From IMG/VR virus record IMGVR_UViG_3300025466_001444: a DNA stretch of 64,000 bases; one strand, 5' to 3'. Each line of letters starts with the position of its first letter. Within the stretch, counting starts at the first letter, position 1. The notes under the pieces are model-generated. The model searched no databases and was not told the origin of the DNA. It saw only the letters and a program-made list of their open reading frames with translations. Below are positions 579 to 53,806 of this stretch, in pieces. A program made the position numbers and the translations under genes. This stretch comes from a virus (taxonomy: Duplodnaviria; Heunggongvirae; Uroviricota; Caudoviricetes).

Positions 579-652
579 TGGCACCAGTGGAAGGAGTCGA
601 ACCCTCGCCCTCAGTTTTGGAGACCGATGTGCTACCGTAACACTTCACTGAT
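579..652 (-). tRNA. tRNA-Trp (anticodon CCA), CCA encoded
   Basis: Cloverleaf found by hand. T-arm GAGGG-TTCGACT-CCTTC, anticodon loop CTCCAAA, acceptor ATCAGTG/CACTGGT. Confidence 0.55.
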
Positions 653-661
653 ATTAATTAT

Positions 662-1267
662 TTATATATTTTTTCTACCTTTAATCCAACCATCAGGTAT
701 ATGATTGTCGGATACTTTTTTATTATTAAATCCGTCCGTTATCCAATAACTACCATACTGTGAATTTGTTATTCCTATATTTTTAAATTTTCTAGAATCT
801 CTCATTTTTTGTTTTGTTTCTTCTGTATGTTTTTTTCCTAGAAAAGCTTTGTTATTTTTTTTAATAATTGATATTTTTTGTTTTGTTTCTTCTGTATGTT
901 TTTTTCCACCAAAAGTTCCTTGTGGATGTAATTTAGCCGCAGCTTTTCCACCTAAACTAGCTTGATTATGTAAATTACTTAAACCTGTTCGATTTATATA
1001 CCCAAACCCACCATGTCCACCATCACAAAGATTATAACTCATTTCATTTATAACAACAAGTTCTTTTTCTTTGTTCTTCATATCTTCTTCATTATCAAAC
1101 ACATGAAGTATTTCTTTGGTAAAATTTTCAATACTATATTTTTGTATAGCTTTTTTAATAAGCTTACCAGAACCCATATATCCGTCATCAAGATTTTTTG
1201 TCTGATGCATTCCAATATAGTATTTGTTATTAATATTGTTTGTAATTTTATAAACTGTATAAAACAA
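662..1267 (-). CDS. GIY-YIG homing endonuclease (seg-like) with NUMOD3 repeats; TTG start
   Basis: N-terminus YKITNNINNKYYIGMH...GYMGSGK is a GIY-YIG motif. C-terminal FLGKKHTEETKQKM repeats are NUMOD3-like. Confidence 0.8.
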   Translation of the reverse strand: MFYTVYKITNNINNKYYIGMHQTKNLDDGYMGSGKLIKKAIQKYSIENFTKEILHVFDNEEDMKNKEKELVVINEMSYNLCDGGHGGFGYINRTGLSNLHNQASLGGKAAAKLHPQGTFGGKKHTEETKQKISIIKKNNKAFLGKKHTEETKQKMRDSRKFKNIGITNSQYGSYWITDGFNNKKVSDNHIPDGWIKGRKNI

Positions 1268-1269
1268 TG

Positions 1270-1330
1270 CTGCCCCCGTTTGTATAATAGACTTATTTCT
1301 AATGCTATTTATACAAACGGGGCGCTTATG
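1270..1330. repeat. 61-bp element identical to 3011..3071, forming a 13-bp perfect stem hairpin immediately upstream of the endonuclease start
   Basis: tgcccccgtttgtataatagacttatttctaatgctatttatacaaacggggcgcttatg occurs twice. The stem ccccgtttgtata pairs with tatacaaacgggg, and the G-run 4-8 nt before the start codon lies inside the stem. Confidence 0.85.
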
Positions 1331-1418
1331 TGGAAAGTGTGGGATTCGAACCCACGGAACCAGTCAAGGTTCGCACATTTAGCAAACGTGTGCTTTAGAC
1401 CACTCAATTATTTTTCCG
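1331..1418 (-). tRNA. tRNA-like gene with long variable arm (type II-like); identity uncertain, possibly degenerate
   Basis: Clear T-arm GTGGG-TTCGAAT-CCCAC and a variable-arm hairpin GAACC/GGTTC. The acceptor and anticodon arms pair poorly, and CCA is not encoded. Confidence 0.4.
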
Positions 1419-2303
1419 TTTAAACAATTCACTCAAATATACACTAAGGCACATATCTACTAAATTATATCTACATTCTAAATAATCAGATTTTTCTAAA
1501 TTATTTGGTATCAACGATGAAATAGGATCGCCTATTCTTCCGTTAGTTTCAATAACTTTAAAATTTATACCAGTAACATCTTTCATTACTTCAATAACTT
1601 GACGGCATGAAGTTGCATAACCAGAACCAATACATTCATACTGTGTATTTTTTGGTTTGTCAATTGCTTTAACAATAGCTTCTGTCAAATCCAATATATG
1701 AATATAATCTCTTAAACATGTTCCATCTTTAGTATCATAATTAGTACCAAATAAATGCATATATGGTCTAGTACCTACCGCAGTTTCTGCAGCAATTCTA
1801 ATTAAGTGGGTTGCTTTACCAATTTGACCAAACGTTCCATTATTGCCAGCAACATTGAAGAATCGAAAGATTGTGTATTCTGTTTCTTTTTCTTTTGCAT
1901 GTTCTTTAATAATACTTTCTGCTATGAGTTTTGATTGAGCATAAGGGGAAGAAAATGGATCAAATGCAGCTGCAGTAGATGCAAAGATAAAATTATCTGT
2001 AGGTGCATATTTTAAGATATTTTTTACACCGATTAAATTTGTTTTAACTTGATCCCATGGTTTGTAAATAGATTCTGATACATCTATTAAACCAGCAAGA
2101 TGCACAACTGCATCATAACTTCCCAAATAATTATCAGTTCTAATATCACCAAAAATATTTTTTCTGACATATGGTAATATATCATTAGATGAGGGTTTAA
2201 TGTCAAGTGAATCGACTACATATCCACATTCGGCTAATCTCTTAATCGTATGTGAACCAATATAGCCATATCCACCTGTCACTAATACTTTTTTCATCAT
2301 CAA
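1404..2303 (-). CDS. NAD-dependent epimerase/dehydratase (UDP-glucose 4-epimerase GalE-like)
   Basis: N-terminal VLVTGGYGYIGSH Rossmann motif and a YAQSK catalytic YxxxK. 299 aa. Confidence 0.75.
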   Translation of the reverse strand: MMMKKVLVTGGYGYIGSHTIKRLAECGYVVDSLDIKPSSNDILPYVRKNIFGDIRTDNYLGSYDAVVHLAGLIDVSESIYKPWDQVKTNLIGVKNILKYAPTDNFIFASTAAAFDPFSSPYAQSKLIAESIIKEHAKEKETEYTIFRFFNVAGNNGTFGQIGKATHLIRIAAETAVGTRPYMHLFGTNYDTKDGTCLRDYIHILDLTEAIVKAIDKPKNTQYECIGSGYATSCRQVIEVMKDVTGINFKVIETNGRIGDPISSLIPNNLEKSDYLECRYNLVDMCLSVYLSELFKRKNN

Positions 2304-3007
2304 ACTTTTTTCATTTTTTGTTTTGCCTCTTCAGAATGTGTTTTTCCTAAAAAAGATGGCGGTGGTTTCATTAATCTACCTTTAATATAACCTAAAATAA
2401 TAAATTTGTCGAGTTCATCTTTATGAATTTTTTTATCTTCATTTCCATTAGTAATCCAACAAGTACCATATTGAGAATTTTTTGATCCTATTAAATTTTT
2501 AGATTTTTTAGAATTTCTCATTTTTTGTTTTGTCTCTTCAGAATGTTTTTTTCCTAAAAAAGATGGAGGAGGTTTCATTAACCCTTTTTCATGTCTTAAT
2601 TTTGTTTTCTCACTTAGTTTAATTTTTACGAAATCTATTTGCGAAGAATTTGATACTCCATATTTTTCTTTAAGTGCAATATTAGTAGCAATTCTACCTT
2701 TTAATACCCAATCTTTTTTTTCAGGTTGTTTATTGATATAACTAAATCCACCATGTCCACCATCACAAAGATTATAACTCATTTCATTTATGACAACAAG
2801 TTCTTTTTCTTTGTTCTTCATATCTTTTTCATTATCAAATATGTGAAGAATATCTTTGGTAAAGTTTTCAATACCATATTTTTTTATAGCTCTTTTAATA
2901 AGTTTACCAGAACCCATATATCCATCTTCTAAATTAGATGTTTTGTGCATTCCGATATAATATTTTTGATTTATATTATTTGTAATTTTATATATTGTAT
3001 AGAACAT
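2300..3007 (-). CDS. GIY-YIG homing endonuclease (paralog of 662..1267) with NUMOD3 repeats
   Basis: MFYTIYKITNNINQKYYIGMH...GYMGSGK motif. Repeated GKKHSEETKQKM and PPPSFLGK segments. Confidence 0.8.
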   Translation of the reverse strand: MFYTIYKITNNINQKYYIGMHKTSNLEDGYMGSGKLIKRAIKKYGIENFTKDILHIFDNEKDMKNKEKELVVINEMSYNLCDGGHGGFSYINKQPEKKDWVLKGRIATNIALKEKYGVSNSSQIDFVKIKLSEKTKLRHEKGLMKPPPSFLGKKHSEETKQKMRNSKKSKNLIGSKNSQYGTCWITNGNEDKKIHKDELDKFIILGYIKGRLMKPPPSFLGKTHSEEAKQKMKKV

Positions 3008-3010
3008 ATA

Positions 3011-3071
3011 CTGCCCCCGTTTGTATAATAGACTTATTTCTAATGCTATTTATACAAACGGGGCGCTTATG
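3011..3071. repeat. Second copy of the 61-bp hairpin element upstream of a GIY-YIG gene start
   Basis: Identical to 1270..1330. Ends 3 nt before the ATG at 3005..3007. Confidence 0.85.
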
Positions 3072-3143
3072 AGCGGATGACTGGATTCGAACCAGCGACC
3101 AACAGTTTGGAAGACTGTGACTCTACCCCTGAGTTACACCCGC
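3072..3143 (-). tRNA. tRNA-Gly (anticodon UCC), CCA not encoded
   Basis: Acceptor GCGGGTG/CATCCGC, D-arm ACTC-AGGGGTA-GAGT, anticodon loop CTTCCAA, T-arm GCTGG-TTCGAAT-CCAGT. Confidence 0.7.
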
Positions 3144-3160
3144 ATATTCATTATATAGTA

Positions 3161-4387
3161 TTACTTGTTGATACGAATAACTCCATCCTTATCAACCTTG
3201 TTTGCAAACTTTCCAGCATCTTCATTCTTGACGCCCTTAAGCTTCAAACCAGAAACAACTCCCTGATCTTTTTTTCCTTCATGAAGTCCAGCCTGTGCAT
3301 GACGATCAAATGTATTATCATCATTATCGCCACCAACAACAGGGAAACGCTTTCCAGTCTTCACATCTTCAACATGAGTTGGATGAGGTACATTCTTTCC
3401 ACGTTGATAAACCATTGCTACAACATGACCCTTGTGAAGTGCAGCTGCTGCTTCCTTATCATTTGACTCTTCATGGTTGGCACCAGTATGAGAAAGAGAA
3501 AGATGATAATTCTCAGGAAGATTAGGATGACCTACTCTGTTGTGCATTTTAGTATAATCATAAAACTGTGCAGTAGGATGACGCTTGAACAACTGTGGAG
3601 CATGTTTTTCCCATGCAATATCAGAAGTTACATTCAAACGAACGCCGGGCTTATAACCTGCTTTTGTTGCTGCCTTAACATGTCTACCAACTTCATGATC
3701 AAGAATACGAGCAGCATGTTCTGGATGTGCAGCAAGAAAATGTGTACGAAGAACTTTTGATGAAAGAGAATTATCAGGGTACTGTCTATTACCACCAGCT
3801 TCTGTTCCAAGACAATTCTTACGACATTCTTTAGAAGCTCTTGGGCATACGTCAAAATCCTTCAAACCATTAGTAGCATGAGGTGCAAGAGCAAGACCTT
3901 TAGTATGAACACCTTCACCAGTTGACTTCATTGTCTTGCCATTTTCACCTAGAAGTTCAGGACGAGTTTTGAACCCACGATCCTTGGCAAATTGATGCAA
4001 AACAGCATGTGATTCCTTAAGCTTTGCTTTGCTTTGGGCTGGTGTTTCTTTATCCATTTCACCAAAAGCTTTATGGAAACCTGCACCAATCTTCTTATGA
4101 AGATTTTCGTTTTCACCAAGACCTTCTTCCTTAGACTTGTTAATAATAGCACTTGTCTTAGGAAGATTCATTGACTTATGTGCAAGTTCGCCCGGCTTAT
4201 CACCACGATTAATGTCAAAAAGAGTTGCCTCATCTAGATCATTATCTTCATTAAGACCCTTCTTACTTTTTCCAGTGGGATCACATGGACCACTCAAATG
4301 AAAAAGAAAATCATGGAGAACTTTAGGTACACCCGGCAAGTCACTCTCTGACATTGATTCTGTAAGAAACGAACTAAATGATAGCAT
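3161..4387 (-). CDS. hypothetical His/Cys-rich protein (408 aa)
   Basis: Long ORF with many HP/HxxH motifs and conserved Cys. Local GC is noticeably higher than in neighbouring genes. Confidence 0.5.
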   Translation of the reverse strand: MLSFSSFLTESMSESDLPGVPKVLHDFLFHLSGPCDPTGKSKKGLNEDNDLDEATLFDINRGDKPGELAHKSMNLPKTSAIINKSKEEGLGENENLHKKIGAGFHKAFGEMDKETPAQSKAKLKESHAVLHQFAKDRGFKTRPELLGENGKTMKSTGEGVHTKGLALAPHATNGLKDFDVCPRASKECRKNCLGTEAGGNRQYPDNSLSSKVLRTHFLAAHPEHAARILDHEVGRHVKAATKAGYKPGVRLNVTSDIAWEKHAPQLFKRHPTAQFYDYTKMHNRVGHPNLPENYHLSLSHTGANHEESNDKEAAAALHKGHVVAMVYQRGKNVPHPTHVEDVKTGKRFPVVGGDNDDNTFDRHAQAGLHEGKKDQGVVSGLKLKGVKNEDAGKFANKVDKDGVIRINK

Positions 4388-6497: not shown

Positions 6498-6569
6498 TTT
6501 TTACCTTCAAAAAACTGTGGGTTAACCGTAGACCCACACGAGTCTATTTATAGCGACCAACCTATATAA

Positions 6570-14871: not shown

Positions 14872-15981
14872 TTACTCCCAAAATTGATCTAATGTATTTC
14901 GTTTTTCAACTTGCCAACCAATCGCATCTAAAATGGTTTTAATAGGCTCAACGAATGACTTAGAATACTGTAGCTCATAATCAATGTACTTGTCAAGGTC
15001 CAATTGACGAGGAAGATTATGATGACATGCAATAACATTTTCTTTGATTGGATTTGGCATTTTCATATAACAGAACTTGATCTTATCACCATCTTGGATA
15101 AAGGGATAACGATTCCCCAGATTTTCATTCCTTAGAAGATTATTATATACAAGTGCTGCACGAACATGCATTGGTGTCCCTGACTTATATATATCTTGCT
15201 TGTTGGACCACTTAGAAAGATTCTTACAACCACGAGGAAATGCAACTTCTTCAAACGAAAGCTTCTTGAATTCCTGACGAAAATCAGCAATAAATTTAAT
15301 CATATCATCTTCTGTCTTGGACATGATTACGCCCATAGCTTTTTTAATATTATCTCGACAAGCTTGTGGTGTGGATGAACGAACAGCTTCGATGCCCATC
15401 ATTTTCAACTTAGGTTCGCTGTATTGAACACCTTCGTTATTCCATACATTCAAGATATAACGTTTCTTTGCAGTCCAAATTCCCTTACTAGCAATTGATT
15501 CACGCTTCATCTGCATCTTCTGTGCATACGCATTCATCATTACTGCTAGTTCTTGATAACATTTGTCAATGAATGGCTGAACCTTTTGTTCGCAGAAAGC
15601 ATCAACAGCACCAACAATAAATGGCGCATCGTCAGTGTTGAGAAGCTTTACCATCTCAGCCATCTTCACATAGATAGAATCAGTATCAGATGCAATTACA
15701 TAATCAACTTCCTTTGTCTTGCATACCTTATTCATAAACTCATTCATCTTCTTTTCAATCCACTTGATTGAAAGCTGACCAGAAAGAGTGATCGAAGTAG
15801 CAAGATTGTCGTCATACCAACGAAAATATTCGTTAGACAACGCACCATATGCTGAGTTGAGTTGAATTTTCTTTGCAAGTTGAAGATTGTGGGATTGAGA
15901 TATTTTTTTAATTAAATTTTCTCTATGCTCTATCAACTCCTGATCCGTCATCTTTTCTATGTCTAGCTTTTGCAGCATCAC
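14872..15981 (-). CDS. 43: DNA polymerase (family B, gp43-like) C-terminal fragment (palm motif B/C, thumb)
   Basis: KIQLNSAYGALSN (motif B, KxxxNSxYG) and a YVIASDTDS-like motif C. The N-terminus overlaps the HNH ORF. Confidence 0.85.
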   Translation of the reverse strand: MMLQKLDIEKMTDQELIEHRENLIKKISQSHNLQLAKKIQLNSAYGALSNEYFRWYDDNLATSITLSGQLSIKWIEKKMNEFMNKVCKTKEVDYVIASDTDSIYVKMAEMVKLLNTDDAPFIVGAVDAFCEQKVQPFIDKCYQELAVMMNAYAQKMQMKRESIASKGIWTAKKRYILNVWNNEGVQYSEPKLKMMGIEAVRSSTPQACRDNIKKAMGVIMSKTEDDMIKFIADFRQEFKKLSFEEVAFPRGCKNLSKWSNKQDIYKSGTPMHVRAALVYNNLLRNENLGNRYPFIQDGDKIKFCYMKMPNPIKENVIACHHNLPRQLDLDKYIDYELQYSKSFVEPIKTILDAIGWQVEKRNTLDQFWE

Positions 15982-16432
15982 TCAACTTCCTTTTCCATTC
16001 ATCAGTAAATACTCTACCCTTACGTCCAACTTTAGCATTATGTTCTGGACTATGCAACTTTCCTTTCAATGCAGAAGAAATATTATTAATATGATCTTCT
16101 GATAATTTTTTCCCTGTCTGTGCTTTTCTATTATTTTCTACATGAGTAATAGAATGTTTTTTTCCTTTTTTAGCATCACTCATTTTTTTTCTGGTTTCTG
16201 AACTTCTAACTTTTCCAGTATTTGCTTTTCTAACTGCTTCACGTTGAACTTCTTCACTTGGTATTCTTCCACTCAATCCTTTCCAAGCAATTTCATCCTG
16301 CCAACGACCATATTTTTCAAACAATAATTTATGTGCTTCTGCATGTTGTTCAACAGTCAAATATTGAATATTTGAAGGATCATTTGTTCCTCCAACGTGT
16401 TTTGGTATTATATGATGTTTGTGTAATAACAT
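15923..16432 (-). CDS. HNH homing endonuclease with NUMOD-like repeats, inserted inside the polymerase gene
   Basis: HHIIPKHVGGTNDPSNIQYLTVEQHAEAH is an HNH motif. Lys-rich repeats of the form GKK..S..H. Confidence 0.75.
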   Translation of the reverse strand: MLLHKHHIIPKHVGGTNDPSNIQYLTVEQHAEAHKLLFEKYGRWQDEIAWKGLSGRIPSEEVQREAVRKANTGKVRSSETRKKMSDAKKGKKHSITHVENNRKAQTGKKLSEDHINNISSALKGKLHSPEHNAKVGRKGRVFTDEWKRKLSDAAKARHRKDDGSGVDRA

Positions 16433-16462
16433 AAAGGGCTCCCATTGTTAGCTACCTGCATG

Positions 16463-17941
16463 TTATTTATATAACATTTTCCTCTTTTTCATTTCAGATT
16501 CAATTATTTCCAAATCTTTTTTGGCTTCAATCATGCGCTCCTTAAATACGACACGATCATTGTACATCTTCTCCATCAGAGTAGGAAGGAAGCCTTGCTT
16601 ATCCTTACGATAGATAGCACCATTAGCAGCAATAGCATGTTCACAATTATGAGACCATTCACTATTAATCAATTCATCAACAGATGAGAATTTAGGCAAT
16701 ATAGCCACAAAAGTTTCAGGACTTACATTATATTGCATAATAAGATGAGGATATAGAGAATTCAAATCGAATGATACAACCCAATCATGCATTCCAAGAA
16801 TTGGGTCTTTTACATATGCGCCAACAATCTGTTCATCCTTATGCGTCTTCTTATTCTGAGGAATAACAATGCGCTGATTAATAAGATAGTTGTGAATGAT
16901 TACATCCCAGAGACGCACAGAAGTAAACGCATCAGAGAAGTTGACCTTCGCATCATACGCAATAGCAAATACTTGTTCGATCAGTTTCAGCTTGTCATCA
17001 AGGCGACCAACAAGATCAACGTCCTTGATATTGTACTCAATGAAAAGCTGATAATTCTTCTTATACAAATCGAACAGAGATTCATATTCAGAATAATCAA
17101 GTTTGCGTTCGCCAAGTTCAATGTGGGCGATGTGATCCAGACGATAGGATTCCTGATTAGTGAATGTGAACTTCCTGTAGAGTTGTAGATAATCAAGTAC
17201 TGTGATGCCAACAGGAATATACGATTTCTGTTCAACACCATATTTCTCTACAGAACGTTCCTCAATGATGCCCCAAGGTGAAATCTTCTTAGCCATTTCA
17301 TTTCCAAGAAGCCTACGGACACGATTGATGATATACGGAATATCAAAGTACTCCACATTCCAACCAGTCACAACATCAGGCTGAAACCACTTCATACGCC
17401 ATAGGTCAAGGAATTTGATGAGCAAAGATTCTTCATCTTTACACTTGAAGTACTTCACATTTTCATTGGTGTTTACGAACTCCCCACACCCAAGAACAAC
17501 GTAGATGTCATCCTTCTTCATTGTGATGGCAGTTATTTCTTTTTCAGCAGTTTCAATATCGGGAAACCCTTCATCAGCTGCAACCTCAATATCGATATTA
17601 ACGATAGAAATTTGCTTAGGGTCATAATCAATTTCGCCGGGATAATAATCATTGATGAATGGGTAGACGAACTGTGTCATCCCATAGATATCAAAGTTGG
17701 AAACATCGCCATATTGCTTCACATAATCACGAGCATCCTTTGGAGAATCAAAGTCGATACGCTTGACAGGATCGCCCTTTAGGTTCCTGAATTCAATCTC
17801 ATCCACATTGTTTGGATTATTGTTGTGGACAAAGAGGTACGGCTTGCAAGGCAGCTTTTCGAATACACGTTTACCACCATCATAGCCACGAAGCAGAATG
17901 GTATCGAAGTGAAGATGTGCATGGGTGTAAAATTTGCTCAT
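16463..17941 (-). CDS. 43: DNA polymerase (family B, gp43-like) N-terminal fragment (N-terminal, exonuclease and motif A region)
   Basis: Exo motifs (FDIE-like IDIEV) and an SFDLNSLYPH-like motif A (VVSFDLNSLYPHLI). The ORF ends in a stop before motif B. Confidence 0.85.
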   Translation of the reverse strand: MSKFYTHAHLHFDTILLRGYDGGKRVFEKLPCKPYLFVHNNNPNNVDEIEFRNLKGDPVKRIDFDSPKDARDYVKQYGDVSNFDIYGMTQFVYPFINDYYPGEIDYDPKQISIVNIDIEVAADEGFPDIETAEKEITAITMKKDDIYVVLGCGEFVNTNENVKYFKCKDEESLLIKFLDLWRMKWFQPDVVTGWNVEYFDIPYIINRVRRLLGNEMAKKISPWGIIEERSVEKYGVEQKSYIPVGITVLDYLQLYRKFTFTNQESYRLDHIAHIELGERKLDYSEYESLFDLYKKNYQLFIEYNIKDVDLVGRLDDKLKLIEQVFAIAYDAKVNFSDAFTSVRLWDVIIHNYLINQRIVIPQNKKTHKDEQIVGAYVKDPILGMHDWVVSFDLNSLYPHLIMQYNVSPETFVAILPKFSSVDELINSEWSHNCEHAIAANGAIYRKDKQGFLPTLMEKMYNDRVVFKERMIEAKKDLEIIESEMKKRKMLYK

Positions 17942-23997: not shown

Positions 23998-24072
23998 ACA
24001 AAAACCTTTCAATTAACGACAAACTGTTTCCCACAGCTTTGTCAGCAAGCTCTTTGATTCGCTCGTTCATCA
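23998..24072 (-). pseudogene. truncated MNER-family paralog (about 25 codons)
   Basis: Reverse-complement reads MNERIKELADKAVGNSLSLIERFLL* and then stops. Confidence 0.45.
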
Positions 24073-24279
24073 TTCAACTCTAAAATATTGTTTAATATTC
24101 CTAGCAATAATAGCACCCATATCATCATCACGATGGCTATTCTTTAAAGATACTTGCTCACATTCCTTAATGATCAATTTGGCGAACTTCTCAACTGGAT
24201 GAGGAGACTGAGTGATGAATGAGCGTATTCGAGAACTTGCTGAACAGGCTGGTCTACATTTAGACGAGAATGGCGACAT
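24070..24279 (-). pseudogene. MNER-family paralog with rearranged N-terminus (C-terminal half conserved)
   Basis: C-terminal VEKFAKLIIKECEQV...KQYFRVE matches the family. The N-terminus is unrelated, and a plus-strand fragment MNERIRELAEQAGL at 24215..24313 indicates a local inversion. Confidence 0.45.
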
Positions 24280-24442
24280 TATCTGGAGTAAAACCAGATA
24301 TAACGGCGAATAGGATAGTGTTTGTCTTCATACGCAAAGATCAGATCGACCAGTTTGGTAAGGACGGTTGCGGCGGGTCCTTCAGCAGAATCGAAGATCA
24401 GATCCACGCATTCTAAGAGGACTTTATAGGTTGCTTCGTCCA

Positions 24443-24634
24443 TCACTTTGCCTTGGGTTCGAGTTTAGCAACGGTACGGATGAGGAAGTTGGCAGCCTTG
24501 GAGTCAACAAGCGCCACACTCAGTAGTGTATCAGCACTAACATGGACCCTGCGGCTAATCTCGTCCAATACGCAGATGAGCGTGTAGCCATCAACAGCAG
24601 GATGCTTACCTAAAAACTGGGCGACCTTTGACAT
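24443..24634 (-). CDS. hypothetical protein (63 aa)
   Basis: ORF. Confidence 0.35.
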   Translation of the reverse strand: MSKVAQFLGKHPAVDGYTLICVLDEISRRVHVSADTLLSVALVDSKAANFLIRTVAKLEPKAK

Positions 24635-24689
24635 CGTATACCTCGTTTGCTAGTGTCTATAATACATAATAGCACATCACAGTGGATTG

Positions 24690-24902
24690 TCAAGTCTGCT
24701 TCTTAGCCAGTTTCAACATGTCGATATGGACTGCGATAGCCTCTGCGCTCTGGCTTCCGTAGAGCCATTCTGTACCATCACAGATAGCGTATTCTTTAGT
24801 ACCGTTCTCTTGGGTAACGACATAGCAGCGGATATCTGGAAACCCTTTGCGTTTAGCATAGGTTTCAATAGTGCGGCACATATCGGTCTTAGCGTATTCC
24901 AT
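24690..24902 (-). CDS. hypothetical protein (70 aa)
   Basis: ORF. Confidence 0.4.
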   Translation of the reverse strand: MEYAKTDMCRTIETYAKRKGFPDIRCYVVTQENGTKEYAICDGTEWLYGSQSAEAIAVHIDMLKLAKKQT

Positions 24903-25177
24903 TACGCAACCTCCTTATCACGGAAGTTAACACGGAACTTCATCATCTTCAAGTTATCTTCTGTGCCGCAAATCTCGACACGCTTGTAGGCATACATGTC
25001 CATGTACTGGATCGTGACCCAAGGAACGATGGTGTTAGCAGCATTGAGCGCCAGACGCATATCAACAATCTCACCACGGATCAGACCAGCTGCGCTGGTG
25101 TAGCGAACACGATCACCAAGCTTCACGCCACCAACCTTGTCCACGTTGTAAGAATTCGTATCCATGACTCTCTCCAT
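24902..25177 (-). CDS. hypothetical protein (91 aa)
   Basis: ORF preceded by the conserved upstream element. Confidence 0.45.
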   Translation of the reverse strand: MERVMDTNSYNVDKVGGVKLGDRVRYTSAAGLIRGEIVDMRLALNAANTIVPWVTIQYMDMYAYKRVEICGTEDNLKMMKFRVNFRDKEVA

Positions 25178-25214
25178 CAGTTGATGATTGATATTAGCAT
25201 ATCCTCAGAGGGTG

Positions 25215-25541
25215 TCAAGCGGCTTTTTTAGCCGCTTCCTCAGAAAGTTGCTTCCAGTACTTCACGATACGGGCGGTTCCACGAACATCCTTGCGGAGCC
25301 ACTGGTTAACTTGCCATTCCAGCAGGGTGCCATTCTTGATGAAATATTTGGCGGTGATAGAACCCTGACGAGCATCAGCCTGAGTGAAACCACGGTTATT
25401 GCTCTCAACAGCGGCATTCATAGCCTTTTCATCCTCAGTTTGGCGACGAAAGAGGGCAACACAAGCCCTCCCAACGATACGAGCCAGCTTTTCCTGATCA
25501 GCGGTGTCGATCATGGTGACAAGAGAGGACTTGGTGAGCAT
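25215..25541 (-). CDS. hypothetical protein (108 aa)
   Basis: ORF preceded by the conserved upstream element. Confidence 0.45.
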   Translation of the reverse strand: MLTKSSLVTMIDTADQEKLARIVGRACVALFRRQTEDEKAMNAAVESNNRGFTQADARQGSITAKYFIKNGTLLEWQVNQWLRKDVRGTARIVKYWKQLSEEAAKKAA

Positions 25542-25579
25542 GTGGTGTCTCCATCAGTTGATGATTGATATTAGGCAAT

Positions 25580-25852
25580 CTAGCAGTAGATGTCAACTGT
25601 TTTTGGCTTAGAAACGAAATTATTTTCACATTCTTTGGGAAATTTCACCCACATTTCTCTGAGCATGATCTGAATGGTATCCGCAGCACCGGGAACCTCA
25701 AGGATTTCAGCGAGATAGATCAGTTCGTTGATGTAGTCAAAGATTTTCCAATGATTACGCATGTTTCTCTCTCCCTCAGATGTAGTAGAAAGTGCTGCCA
25801 GCCTTGAGAATGCGGCTGTAAGCAAAGCGAACCTCACGCTCAAACTCCTCAT
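25580..25852 (-). CDS. hypothetical protein (90 aa)
   Basis: ORF. Confidence 0.4.
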   Translation of the reverse strand: MRSLSVRFALLTAAFSRLAALSTTSEGERNMRNHWKIFDYINELIYLAEILEVPGAADTIQIMLREMWVKFPKECENNFVSKPKTVDIYC

Positions 25853-26008
25853 TCGTACATTCAGAGAAGTCTATAACCATACGTTCGTAAACCTTAAACG
25901 CCATGTCTTCATCACAACCCAGAACTTTTTCGATTTCGCTAATCCAAAGCATGTCCATATCTCCGTTGTTGATGACCCTTTATAGGACATCTGAAACAAC
26001 GTGTCAAC

Positions 26009-53740: not shown

Positions 53741-53806
53741 AATAATATTTTTCCTTAAGAAAAGAGAGCCGTTATACTCTATTTATAACGGCTCTCGATT
53801 ACTTAA

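Follow-up and report, generated by a model that had tools for sequence, protein, structure and literature searches.

How did two related homing endonuclease genes (HEGs) come to stand in one viral tRNA cluster, each behind the same leader, and what does that leader do? The question is raised by positions 579-3143 of a 64,000-nucleotide (nt) stretch of IMG/VR record IMGVR_UViG_3300025466_001444 (Caudoviricetes), and this whole stretch is called the window below. Our answer is that two free-standing genes of the SegB family, HEG1 and HEG2, were probably inserted exactly at the 3' ends of a tRNA-Ser and a tRNA-Gly gene respectively, and that each would have brought along its own 5' leader, acting as a timing switch made of a hairpin and a late promoter. 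On a postulated read-through transcript, coming from the tRNA precursor or the upstream genes, a hairpin of 14 base pairs (bp) would bury the Shine-Dalgarno (SD) sequence and the nuclease would stay untranslated. An RNA made late from the promoter box TATAAATA, with its start, as we place it, in the loop, would have no 5' arm, and with the ribosome site open the nuclease would be translated late in infection. By analogy with published T4 SegB, the nuclease may then cut tRNA genes via their T-psi-C motif. We give this reading as a whole a probability of about 0.78. The parts on which it turns are the following.

662..1267, minus strand: HEG1, SegB-like GIY-YIG/NUMOD3 homing endonuclease, 201 amino acids (aa), TTG start.
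1268..1329, minus strand: regulatory element copy 1, with 5' arm 1309-1322, TATAAATA 1306-1313, 3' arm 1274-1287 and SD GGGGG 1273-1277.
2300..3007, minus strand: HEG2, SegB-like GIY-YIG/NUMOD3 homing endonuclease, 235 aa, ATG start.
3008..3070, minus strand: regulatory element copy 2, with 5' arm 3050-3063, TATAAATA 3047-3054, 3' arm 3015-3028 and SD GGGGG 3014-3018.

The first-pass annotation of this locus reported an identical 61-bp element in front of both genes, and direct comparison bears this out: positions 1270-1330 and 3011-3071 are exactly the same over 61 nt, within a 64-nt match (1267-1330 and 3008-3071) that has one mismatch. The repeat runs on into the coding sequence, where 275 nt are 87% identical, and the resulting direct repeats are about 340 bp each and spaced 1741 nt apart. 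A 49-nt core has only two occurrences in the window as against 0 expected. Read on the coding strand, the leader consists of the tRNA 3' end, ATAAGCG, CCCCGTTTG-TATAAATA-G, a loop, TTATACAAACGGGG-G, CAGNAT and the start codon, and each copy contains a perfect inverted repeat of 14 bp with 21 nt between the arms. The stem had earlier been given as a perfect one of 13 bp; it is indeed perfect, but its length is 14 bp. In silico folding of the minus-strand RNA gives a stable hairpin in the transcript orientation for both copies, at -26.8 and -29.0 kcal/mol (z -5.0 and -5.3), and 0 of 200 shuffled sequences are as stable. The GGGGG run lies in the 3' arm, 5-6 nt ahead of the start codon, and both fold and position agree with the earlier proposal that this G-run is the SD sequence and that the hairpin sequesters it as in I-TevI.

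That the repeat is an assembly artefact is ruled out by an independent contig from ENA, which is 100% identical across both copies, and two JGI contigs (sample 3300004770) end within the HEG1 copy of the repeat, as is expected for a real repeat. Rfam matches were to tRNAs only, with no family for the hairpin. A covariance model built from the leader alignment described below scores copy 1 at 70.7 bits and copy 2 at 72.3 bits, and over the window it finds these two HEG leaders only. A reading of the hairpin as terminator is ruled out, as there is no T-run after the stem and the terminator scan did not call it.

The 5' arm also contains TATAAATA, which by its sequence is the T4 late-promoter box and which was overlooked in the first-pass annotation. 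With it the leader would have all the parts of a switch of the I-TevI/segB type. The box occurs 18 times in the window, against 7.7 expected, and 0 of 100 shuffles reach that number; all but one of the 18 copies (17/18) are on the coding strand, and among these are sites that precede the capsid, portal and sheath genes by 34-47 nt. Late transcripts of T4 begin a few bases past the late box. As TATAAATA lies without mismatch across the upper end of the 5' arm in both leaders, any start downstream of the box would give an RNA without the 5' arm. Opening the region from SD to start codon is calculated to cost 20.6 and 20.4 kcal/mol in the read-through RNA of the two genes, as against 3.4 and 5.5 kcal/mol in the predicted late RNA, and the medians for 29 relatives are 15.9 (read-through) and 3.2 kcal/mol (late). 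Upstream of the HEGs the genes are co-oriented and tightly packed, and the terminator scan found no terminator-like site there. Sigma-70-like matches in the window are not above chance (30, with 31.6 expected) and are uninformative on early promoters.

A late promoter behind a tRNA gene is not in itself peculiar to these genes. We found a tRNA T-arm with TATAAATAG within 40 nt at 119 viral-contig loci, mostly with non-endonuclease genes, and SegB-like genes are present at only about 18 of the 119. A late promoter after a tRNA gene is thus common, and it is the hairpin that marks the leader family of the SegB-like genes. In the window there are also late-promoter boxes directly after tRNA-Asn (6545-6552) and directly before tRNA-Trp (659-666). 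A further strong hairpin, GAGAGCCGT-TATAAATA-GAGTATAACGGCTCTC followed by a T-rich run, is found at 53760-53800 (minus strand) just upstream of the portal gene; it resembles a combined terminator and late promoter and leaves the portal ribosome site uncovered.

Comparison among relatives also supports the hairpin. Leaders of SegB-like relatives have the same anatomy with different stem sequences, and for the analysis of covariation we aligned 21 leaders of SegB-like genes from viral contigs with MAFFT. TATAAATAG is invariant in 21 of 21. In the 14-pair helix 89% of cells pair, as against 69% in shuffles, and changes on both sides are seen at 9 of the 14 stem pairs. There are 63 compensated cells, compared with 21 +/- 3.5 in shuffles (0 of 500 shuffles reach 63), and the covariation score is 0.556, with values of 0.07-0.19 for slid registers. 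The leader of T4 segB folds alike, at -19.4 kcal/mol; its 5' arm contains CATAAATA, and the UUAGAAAU core of the loop is shared.

The genes themselves are true homologues of segB. HEG1 and HEG2 are 44% identical to T4 SegB over the full length (BLASTP, E 2e-43 and 6e-48), with segB being the best-matching T4 locus, and phages that have no segB are matched only via segD, segE or segC, at lower scores. The alignment covers the tyrosine and glycine of the YIG motif (Y17, G19), which are the residues mutated to inactivate T6 SegB (PMC13096335). Both open reading frames (ORFs) match NUMOD3 above its cut-off and PHROG 314 "homing endonuclease" at about 160 bits; the match to TIGR01453 is just under cut-off, and the SegE_GIY-YIG model gives 25.8 and 24.6 bits for a cut-off of 25. 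The earlier description as two paralogous GIY-YIG/NUMOD3 genes in a tRNA cluster that recall T4 segB is thus well founded, given NUMOD3, PHROG 314 and the full-length homology to SegB, and the TTG start that it proposed for HEG1 is plausible, with TTG or GTG in 10 of 29 relatives.

The stop codon of HEG2 overlaps the start of the following epimerase gene (TGATG). HEG2 has an extra C-terminal NUMOD3 repeat, an internal duplication (2300-2376 and 2514-2581) that stretches the ORF up to the epimerase start and so gives the overlap of stop and start codons. In the related locus L001 the HEG2-type ORF is five codons shorter owing to a point change. Within HEG1, NUMOD3 is duplicated in tandem (765-915, 69-nt spacing).

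The product of T4 segB recognises the conserved T-psi-C motif of tRNA genes, GGTTCRANTCC (PMC2330249). The motif is found in the tRNA genes adjoining HEG1 and HEG2, and the insertions are exactly at tRNA 3' ends, which is consistent with tRNA-gene cleavage of the SegB type. The closest homologues of the two proteins are members of tRNA clusters, where the preceding tRNAs are of many isotypes, and the clusters of some relatives (for example L010 and L021) hold at least two SegB-like copies. Co-location with tRNA genes is widespread among SegB homologues (PMC13096335), and in T4 segB is located between tRNA-Ile and tRNA-Arg.

There is a third homing endonuclease gene in the window, of the HNH/NUMOD type (15923-16432), which splits the DNA polymerase gene (14872-17941, minus strand) into an N-terminal ORF at 16463-17941 and a C-terminal ORF at 14872-15981. 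It has TATAAATA just upstream, at 16464-16471, and a weak hairpin (-14.4 kcal/mol, z -2.2) in which sequence behind the box pairs with the start codon. The regulatory logic is the same as in the HEG leaders, in an unrelated endonuclease family.

Were HEG1 and HEG2 inserted into an existing cluster, and what of the genes around them? Two relatives, L204 (FAD oxidoreductase 96% identical to that of the window) and L205 (73% identical, on a 202-kb contig), allow direct comparison. The flanking features in the window are as follows.

579..652, minus strand: tRNA-Trp(CCA), which bounds the HEG1 site downstream (ARAGORN and Rfam).
653..667, minus strand: resident spacer between tRNA-Ser and tRNA-Trp, with its own TATAAATA at 659-666, homologous to the 14-nt spacer of the L204 empty site.
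1330..1417, minus strand: tRNA-Ser(GCT) (ARAGORN; Rfam 33.3 bits, gathering score 29).
1404..2303, minus strand: GalE-like NAD-dependent sugar epimerase, likely start ATG at 2300 or 2297.
3071..3143, minus strand: tRNA-Gly(UCC) (ARAGORN; Rfam tRNA 65 bits).

The order is tRNA-Gly / HEG2 and tRNA-Ser / HEG1 / tRNA-Trp, all on the minus strand, that is, free-standing ORFs co-oriented with the tRNA genes. The HEG2 cassette begins right at the tRNA-Gly 3' end and the HEG1 cassette right at the tRNA-Ser 3' end. A tRNA gene before each cassette had been noted in the first pass, and the one described there as tRNA-like is the tRNA-Ser(GCT). Its 5' acceptor stem shares 14 nt with the end of the epimerase ORF (1404-1417), an overlap of tRNA and coding sequence.

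L204 and L205 have tRNA-Gly, epimerase, tRNA-Ser and tRNA-Trp in the order of the window, with neither endonuclease ORF. In L204 there is no HEG1 and tRNA-Trp follows 14 nt after tRNA-Ser, and from this empty site the HEG1 insertion is deduced to be at about 668-1329; the last two codons and stop of HEG1 come from the resident ATATAAATA spacer. At the other site L204 has tRNA-Gly, then a hairpin-only remnant, then the epimerase gene with its own SD; in this remnant three stem pairs are compensated and the box has decayed to TATAATTA. The epimerase gene of L205 abuts tRNA-Gly with no hairpin, and a different ORF is present between tRNA-Ser and tRNA-Trp. With the cassettes absent or reduced to a remnant at the syntenic sites, both endonuclease genes are optional insertions. 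The third relative, L001, is 95-100% identical to the window over hairpin and HEG2 and 60-87% identical from about 100 nt into the epimerase gene, and its upstream gene is replaced relative to the window. This is the pattern expected of homing with short co-conversion tracts, to judge from the identity profile.

The same comparisons decide on the epimerase. It had been suggested that the gene is cargo mobilised with the endonucleases, and this we reject: L204 and L205 keep the epimerase without the HEGs, and the identity of L001 drops over it. By these alignments the epimerase is a resident backbone gene, and the tRNA-Ser between the HEGs appears to be likewise resident. The protein matches Pfam Epimerase at 115 bits and the galE model at 188 bits, which is under the cut-off of that model, and a search for relatives in viral contigs gave only two loci. 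On the other side of tRNA-Gly, the upstream gene (3161-4387) codes in both the window and L205 for a GP88-family protein of 408 aa, and in its place L001 (493-2481) and L204 (1765-3753) have a gene for a largely unrelated 662-aa protein, a module replacement that adjoins the endonuclease site.

The remnant in L204 is not the only hairpin to be found alone. Among the fetched loci the covariance model finds hairpins with no endonuclease ORF at L204:3843-3909, L144:4656-4720 (minus) and L107:1546-1610 (minus), the second between tRNA-Met and tRNA-Val and the third before a different, zinc-finger ORF. All three are remnants of the SegB leader that stand beside tRNA genes with the stem still well paired. 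The TATAAATA box is decayed in 3 of 3 of these solo hairpins as against 1 of 22 gene-linked copies (Fisher p = 0.0017).

Solo copies raise the question of whether the hairpin is mainly a tRNA element, a signal for 3' processing or stability, a terminator or an attenuator, whose overlap with the ribosome site of the endonuclease gene would be secondary. Well-paired copies stand between tRNA-Met and tRNA-Val in L144 and between tRNA-Gly and epimerase in L204, and the hairpin always abuts a tRNA 3' end via a conserved ATAAGCG or ATAGAG. However, the other five tRNA genes of the window are without the element by the covariance model, the stem has no T-run behind it and the terminator scan was silent, and the site in L205, which was never invaded, has no hairpin. 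Further, the 3' arm always carries a purine-rich SD, whose distance to the start codon is fixed, and invariance of the box is limited to copies with an endonuclease gene. We therefore consider a mainly tRNA-related role unlikely. A broader conjecture is that the SegB leader is a portable regulatory module that outlives its gene and was maybe co-opted for tRNA-precursor processing or for control of the next gene, with the HEG repeats forming a unit of amplification or deletion; this we regard as possible but doubtful.

Several points weigh against the timing switch as we read it. The SD is GGGGG, with no canonical GGAGG, and Pfam GIY-YIG models are at or just under their cut-offs for both ORFs. 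We infer both the late start site and the read-through transcripts, and the original paper on T4 segB found no mapped promoter near the hairpin (PMC2330249). Solo stems stay well paired once the gene is lost, that of L204 perfectly and that of L144 with a bulge, and this retention hints at a function beyond endonuclease control. The stems contain as many G.U as A.C pairs (5:5), and this test of strand is thus uninformative: the covariation shows pairing, and does not show on which strand or whether in RNA rather than DNA. We favour folding of the mRNA because of the placement of the SD. Finally, the loop sequence is conserved beyond what the model needs.

The last of these points, with the lack of a strand-specific wobble signal, leads to the alternative that the inverted repeat works as DNA, either as an operator to which the endonuclease binds and so represses its own late promoter, or as a recombination hot spot for the shuffling of modules, like the PeSL cassettes. 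I-TevI binds an operator that overlaps its own late promoter (PMC2988022), and PeSL promoter/stem-loop motifs mediate insertions and deletions in T4-like phages (PMC4122927); conservation of the junction, in addition to that of the loop, and the mosaic gene of L001 discussed below also fit a role of this kind. However, the stem sequences change freely with compensation on the other arm, as expected of base pairing and not of a site recognised by a protein, and the element has no similarity to the tRNA T-arm that SegB targets. Its occurrences are limited to SegB-like genes or their remnants, the other module borders of the window being without it, and a DNA-level role could coexist with the RNA switch instead of replacing it. 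The likeness to PeSL cassettes (PMC2839356, PMC4122927) is in a short conserved promoter with stem-loop that is recurrent and offers possible recombination points. PeSL is an early promoter with a terminator that borders many unrelated genes, whereas the promoter of the HEG element is a late one, its stem-loop does not resemble a terminator and it goes with a single endonuclease family; there are two copies in 64 kb, both before SegB-like genes. A DNA-level function in place of the RNA switch is in our view quite improbable.

Why then are the two leaders so nearly identical? The leaders are the same over 61 nt and the adjoining coding DNA differs by about 13-20%; at a rate of 13% the binomial probability of 0 mismatches in 61 is 2e-4. 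The gene in L001 resembles HEG2 apart from 12 consecutive informative sites (codons ~40-90), which match HEG1, a mosaic that points to gene conversion between the HEG1 and HEG2 types. The near-identity of leaders and 5' coding parts is, on these sequence comparisons, probably best explained by gene conversion between the paralogues.

Recent duplication would also give identical leaders. In T6, SegB drives tandem amplification of tRNA + segB units through homologous recombination (PMC13096335), and the repeats in the window are direct, at the spacing given above, so the 61-nt identity could reflect recent common descent from one unit by a segmental duplication that SegB itself drove. However, the two proteins are only 60% identical and the 3' halves of the genes barely align as DNA (24-52% in windows); the upstream tRNAs are different and the downstream DNA is unrelated (epimerase and tRNA-Ser in one case, tRNA-Trp in the other). 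L204, with a remnant at one site and the other clean and empty, fits two insertions followed by gene conversion of the 5' ends. A recent tandem duplication of the whole cassette is rejected on the unrelated 3' halves and flanks, and a recent SegB-driven origin of the pair is very improbable. The further suggestion of the first pass, that the repeat could mediate deletion or duplication of the epimerase cassette, is plausible, and the L001 mosaic of the two paralogue types is the one indirect indication of it. One may speculate that the 340-bp direct repeats and an active SegB-like nuclease would together form a unit that amplifies or deletes tRNA-Ser and epimerase under pressure from host defence.

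With regard to known systems, a switch that combines hairpin and late promoter has been demonstrated in the case of I-TevI and gene e; for mobE it was shown or proposed, and for segB it was predicted (PMC2988022, PMC3014915, PMC2330249). The resemblance to T4 segB is close (PMC2330249, PMC13096335): in both cases the genes are between tRNA genes, in the same orientation and missing in close relatives, and the leader has a hairpin that occludes the ribosome site, a sequence like a late box in the 5' arm and a common UUAGAAAU loop core. The differences are that one cluster here holds two paralogues, in a distant, low-GC, environmental phage; that the box is a perfect TATAAATA as against CATAAATA in T4; that the longer stem takes in the SD and leaves the start codon free; and that HEG2 carries an additional NUMOD3 repeat and is coupled to the gene that follows. 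With I-TevI, gene e, soc and mobE of Aeh1 (PMC2988022, PMC3014915) the HEG element shares an SD that would be sequestered on long early or middle transcripts, and a late promoter in or beside the 5' arm whose late transcripts would be open for translation. I-TevI differs in being intron-encoded, with a tight control that serves splicing, whereas the upstream RNA here would be a tRNA precursor.

The window encodes the T4-type core genes gp23, gp20, gp18, gp41, gp43 and gp46, and its large ORFs match a major head protein, portal, tail sheath, DnaB-like helicase, DNA polymerase, SbcC-like nuclease and helicase. The capsid protein is 60-69% identical to its counterparts in Stenotrophomonas phage DLP_6, cyanophages and Pelagibacter/Methylophilales myophages. 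Nearly all genes are on the minus strand. The content of guanine plus cytosine (GC) is about 30-45% per 2-kb window, mostly 30-38%; the highest value, 45%, is for 24001-26000, which has no ORF of at least 150 aa (roughly 30-42% in the other 2-kb windows). Megablast of the region gave no match in 50,697 phage records, and at the DNA level the phage thus appears to have no close cultured relative. By its core genes the source is an uncultured T4-like myovirus, distant from T4 and of low GC.

We conclude that the locus belongs to a known family with a known regulatory design; it is an ordinary but well-supported example and leaves current understanding unchanged. It adds a perfect late box, and a pair of paralogues with 340-bp direct repeats that flank a tRNA-Ser and a sugar epimerase gene. 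With a tRNA gene between its two members, the pair is, speculatively, a natural candidate for amplification by SegB of the kind reported in 2026. The relatives show stages in the life cycle of a homing endonuclease at one locus, namely naive, occupied, mosaic gene and hairpin-only remnant. The T4 segB hairpin was previously a folding prediction only, and to this are now added covariation at 9/14 pairs, an invariant box, and decay of the box after loss of the gene. The picture drawn from T4 segB, of a site in a tRNA cluster and an occluding hairpin with a late promoter within it, would extend to distant uncultured T4-like phages.

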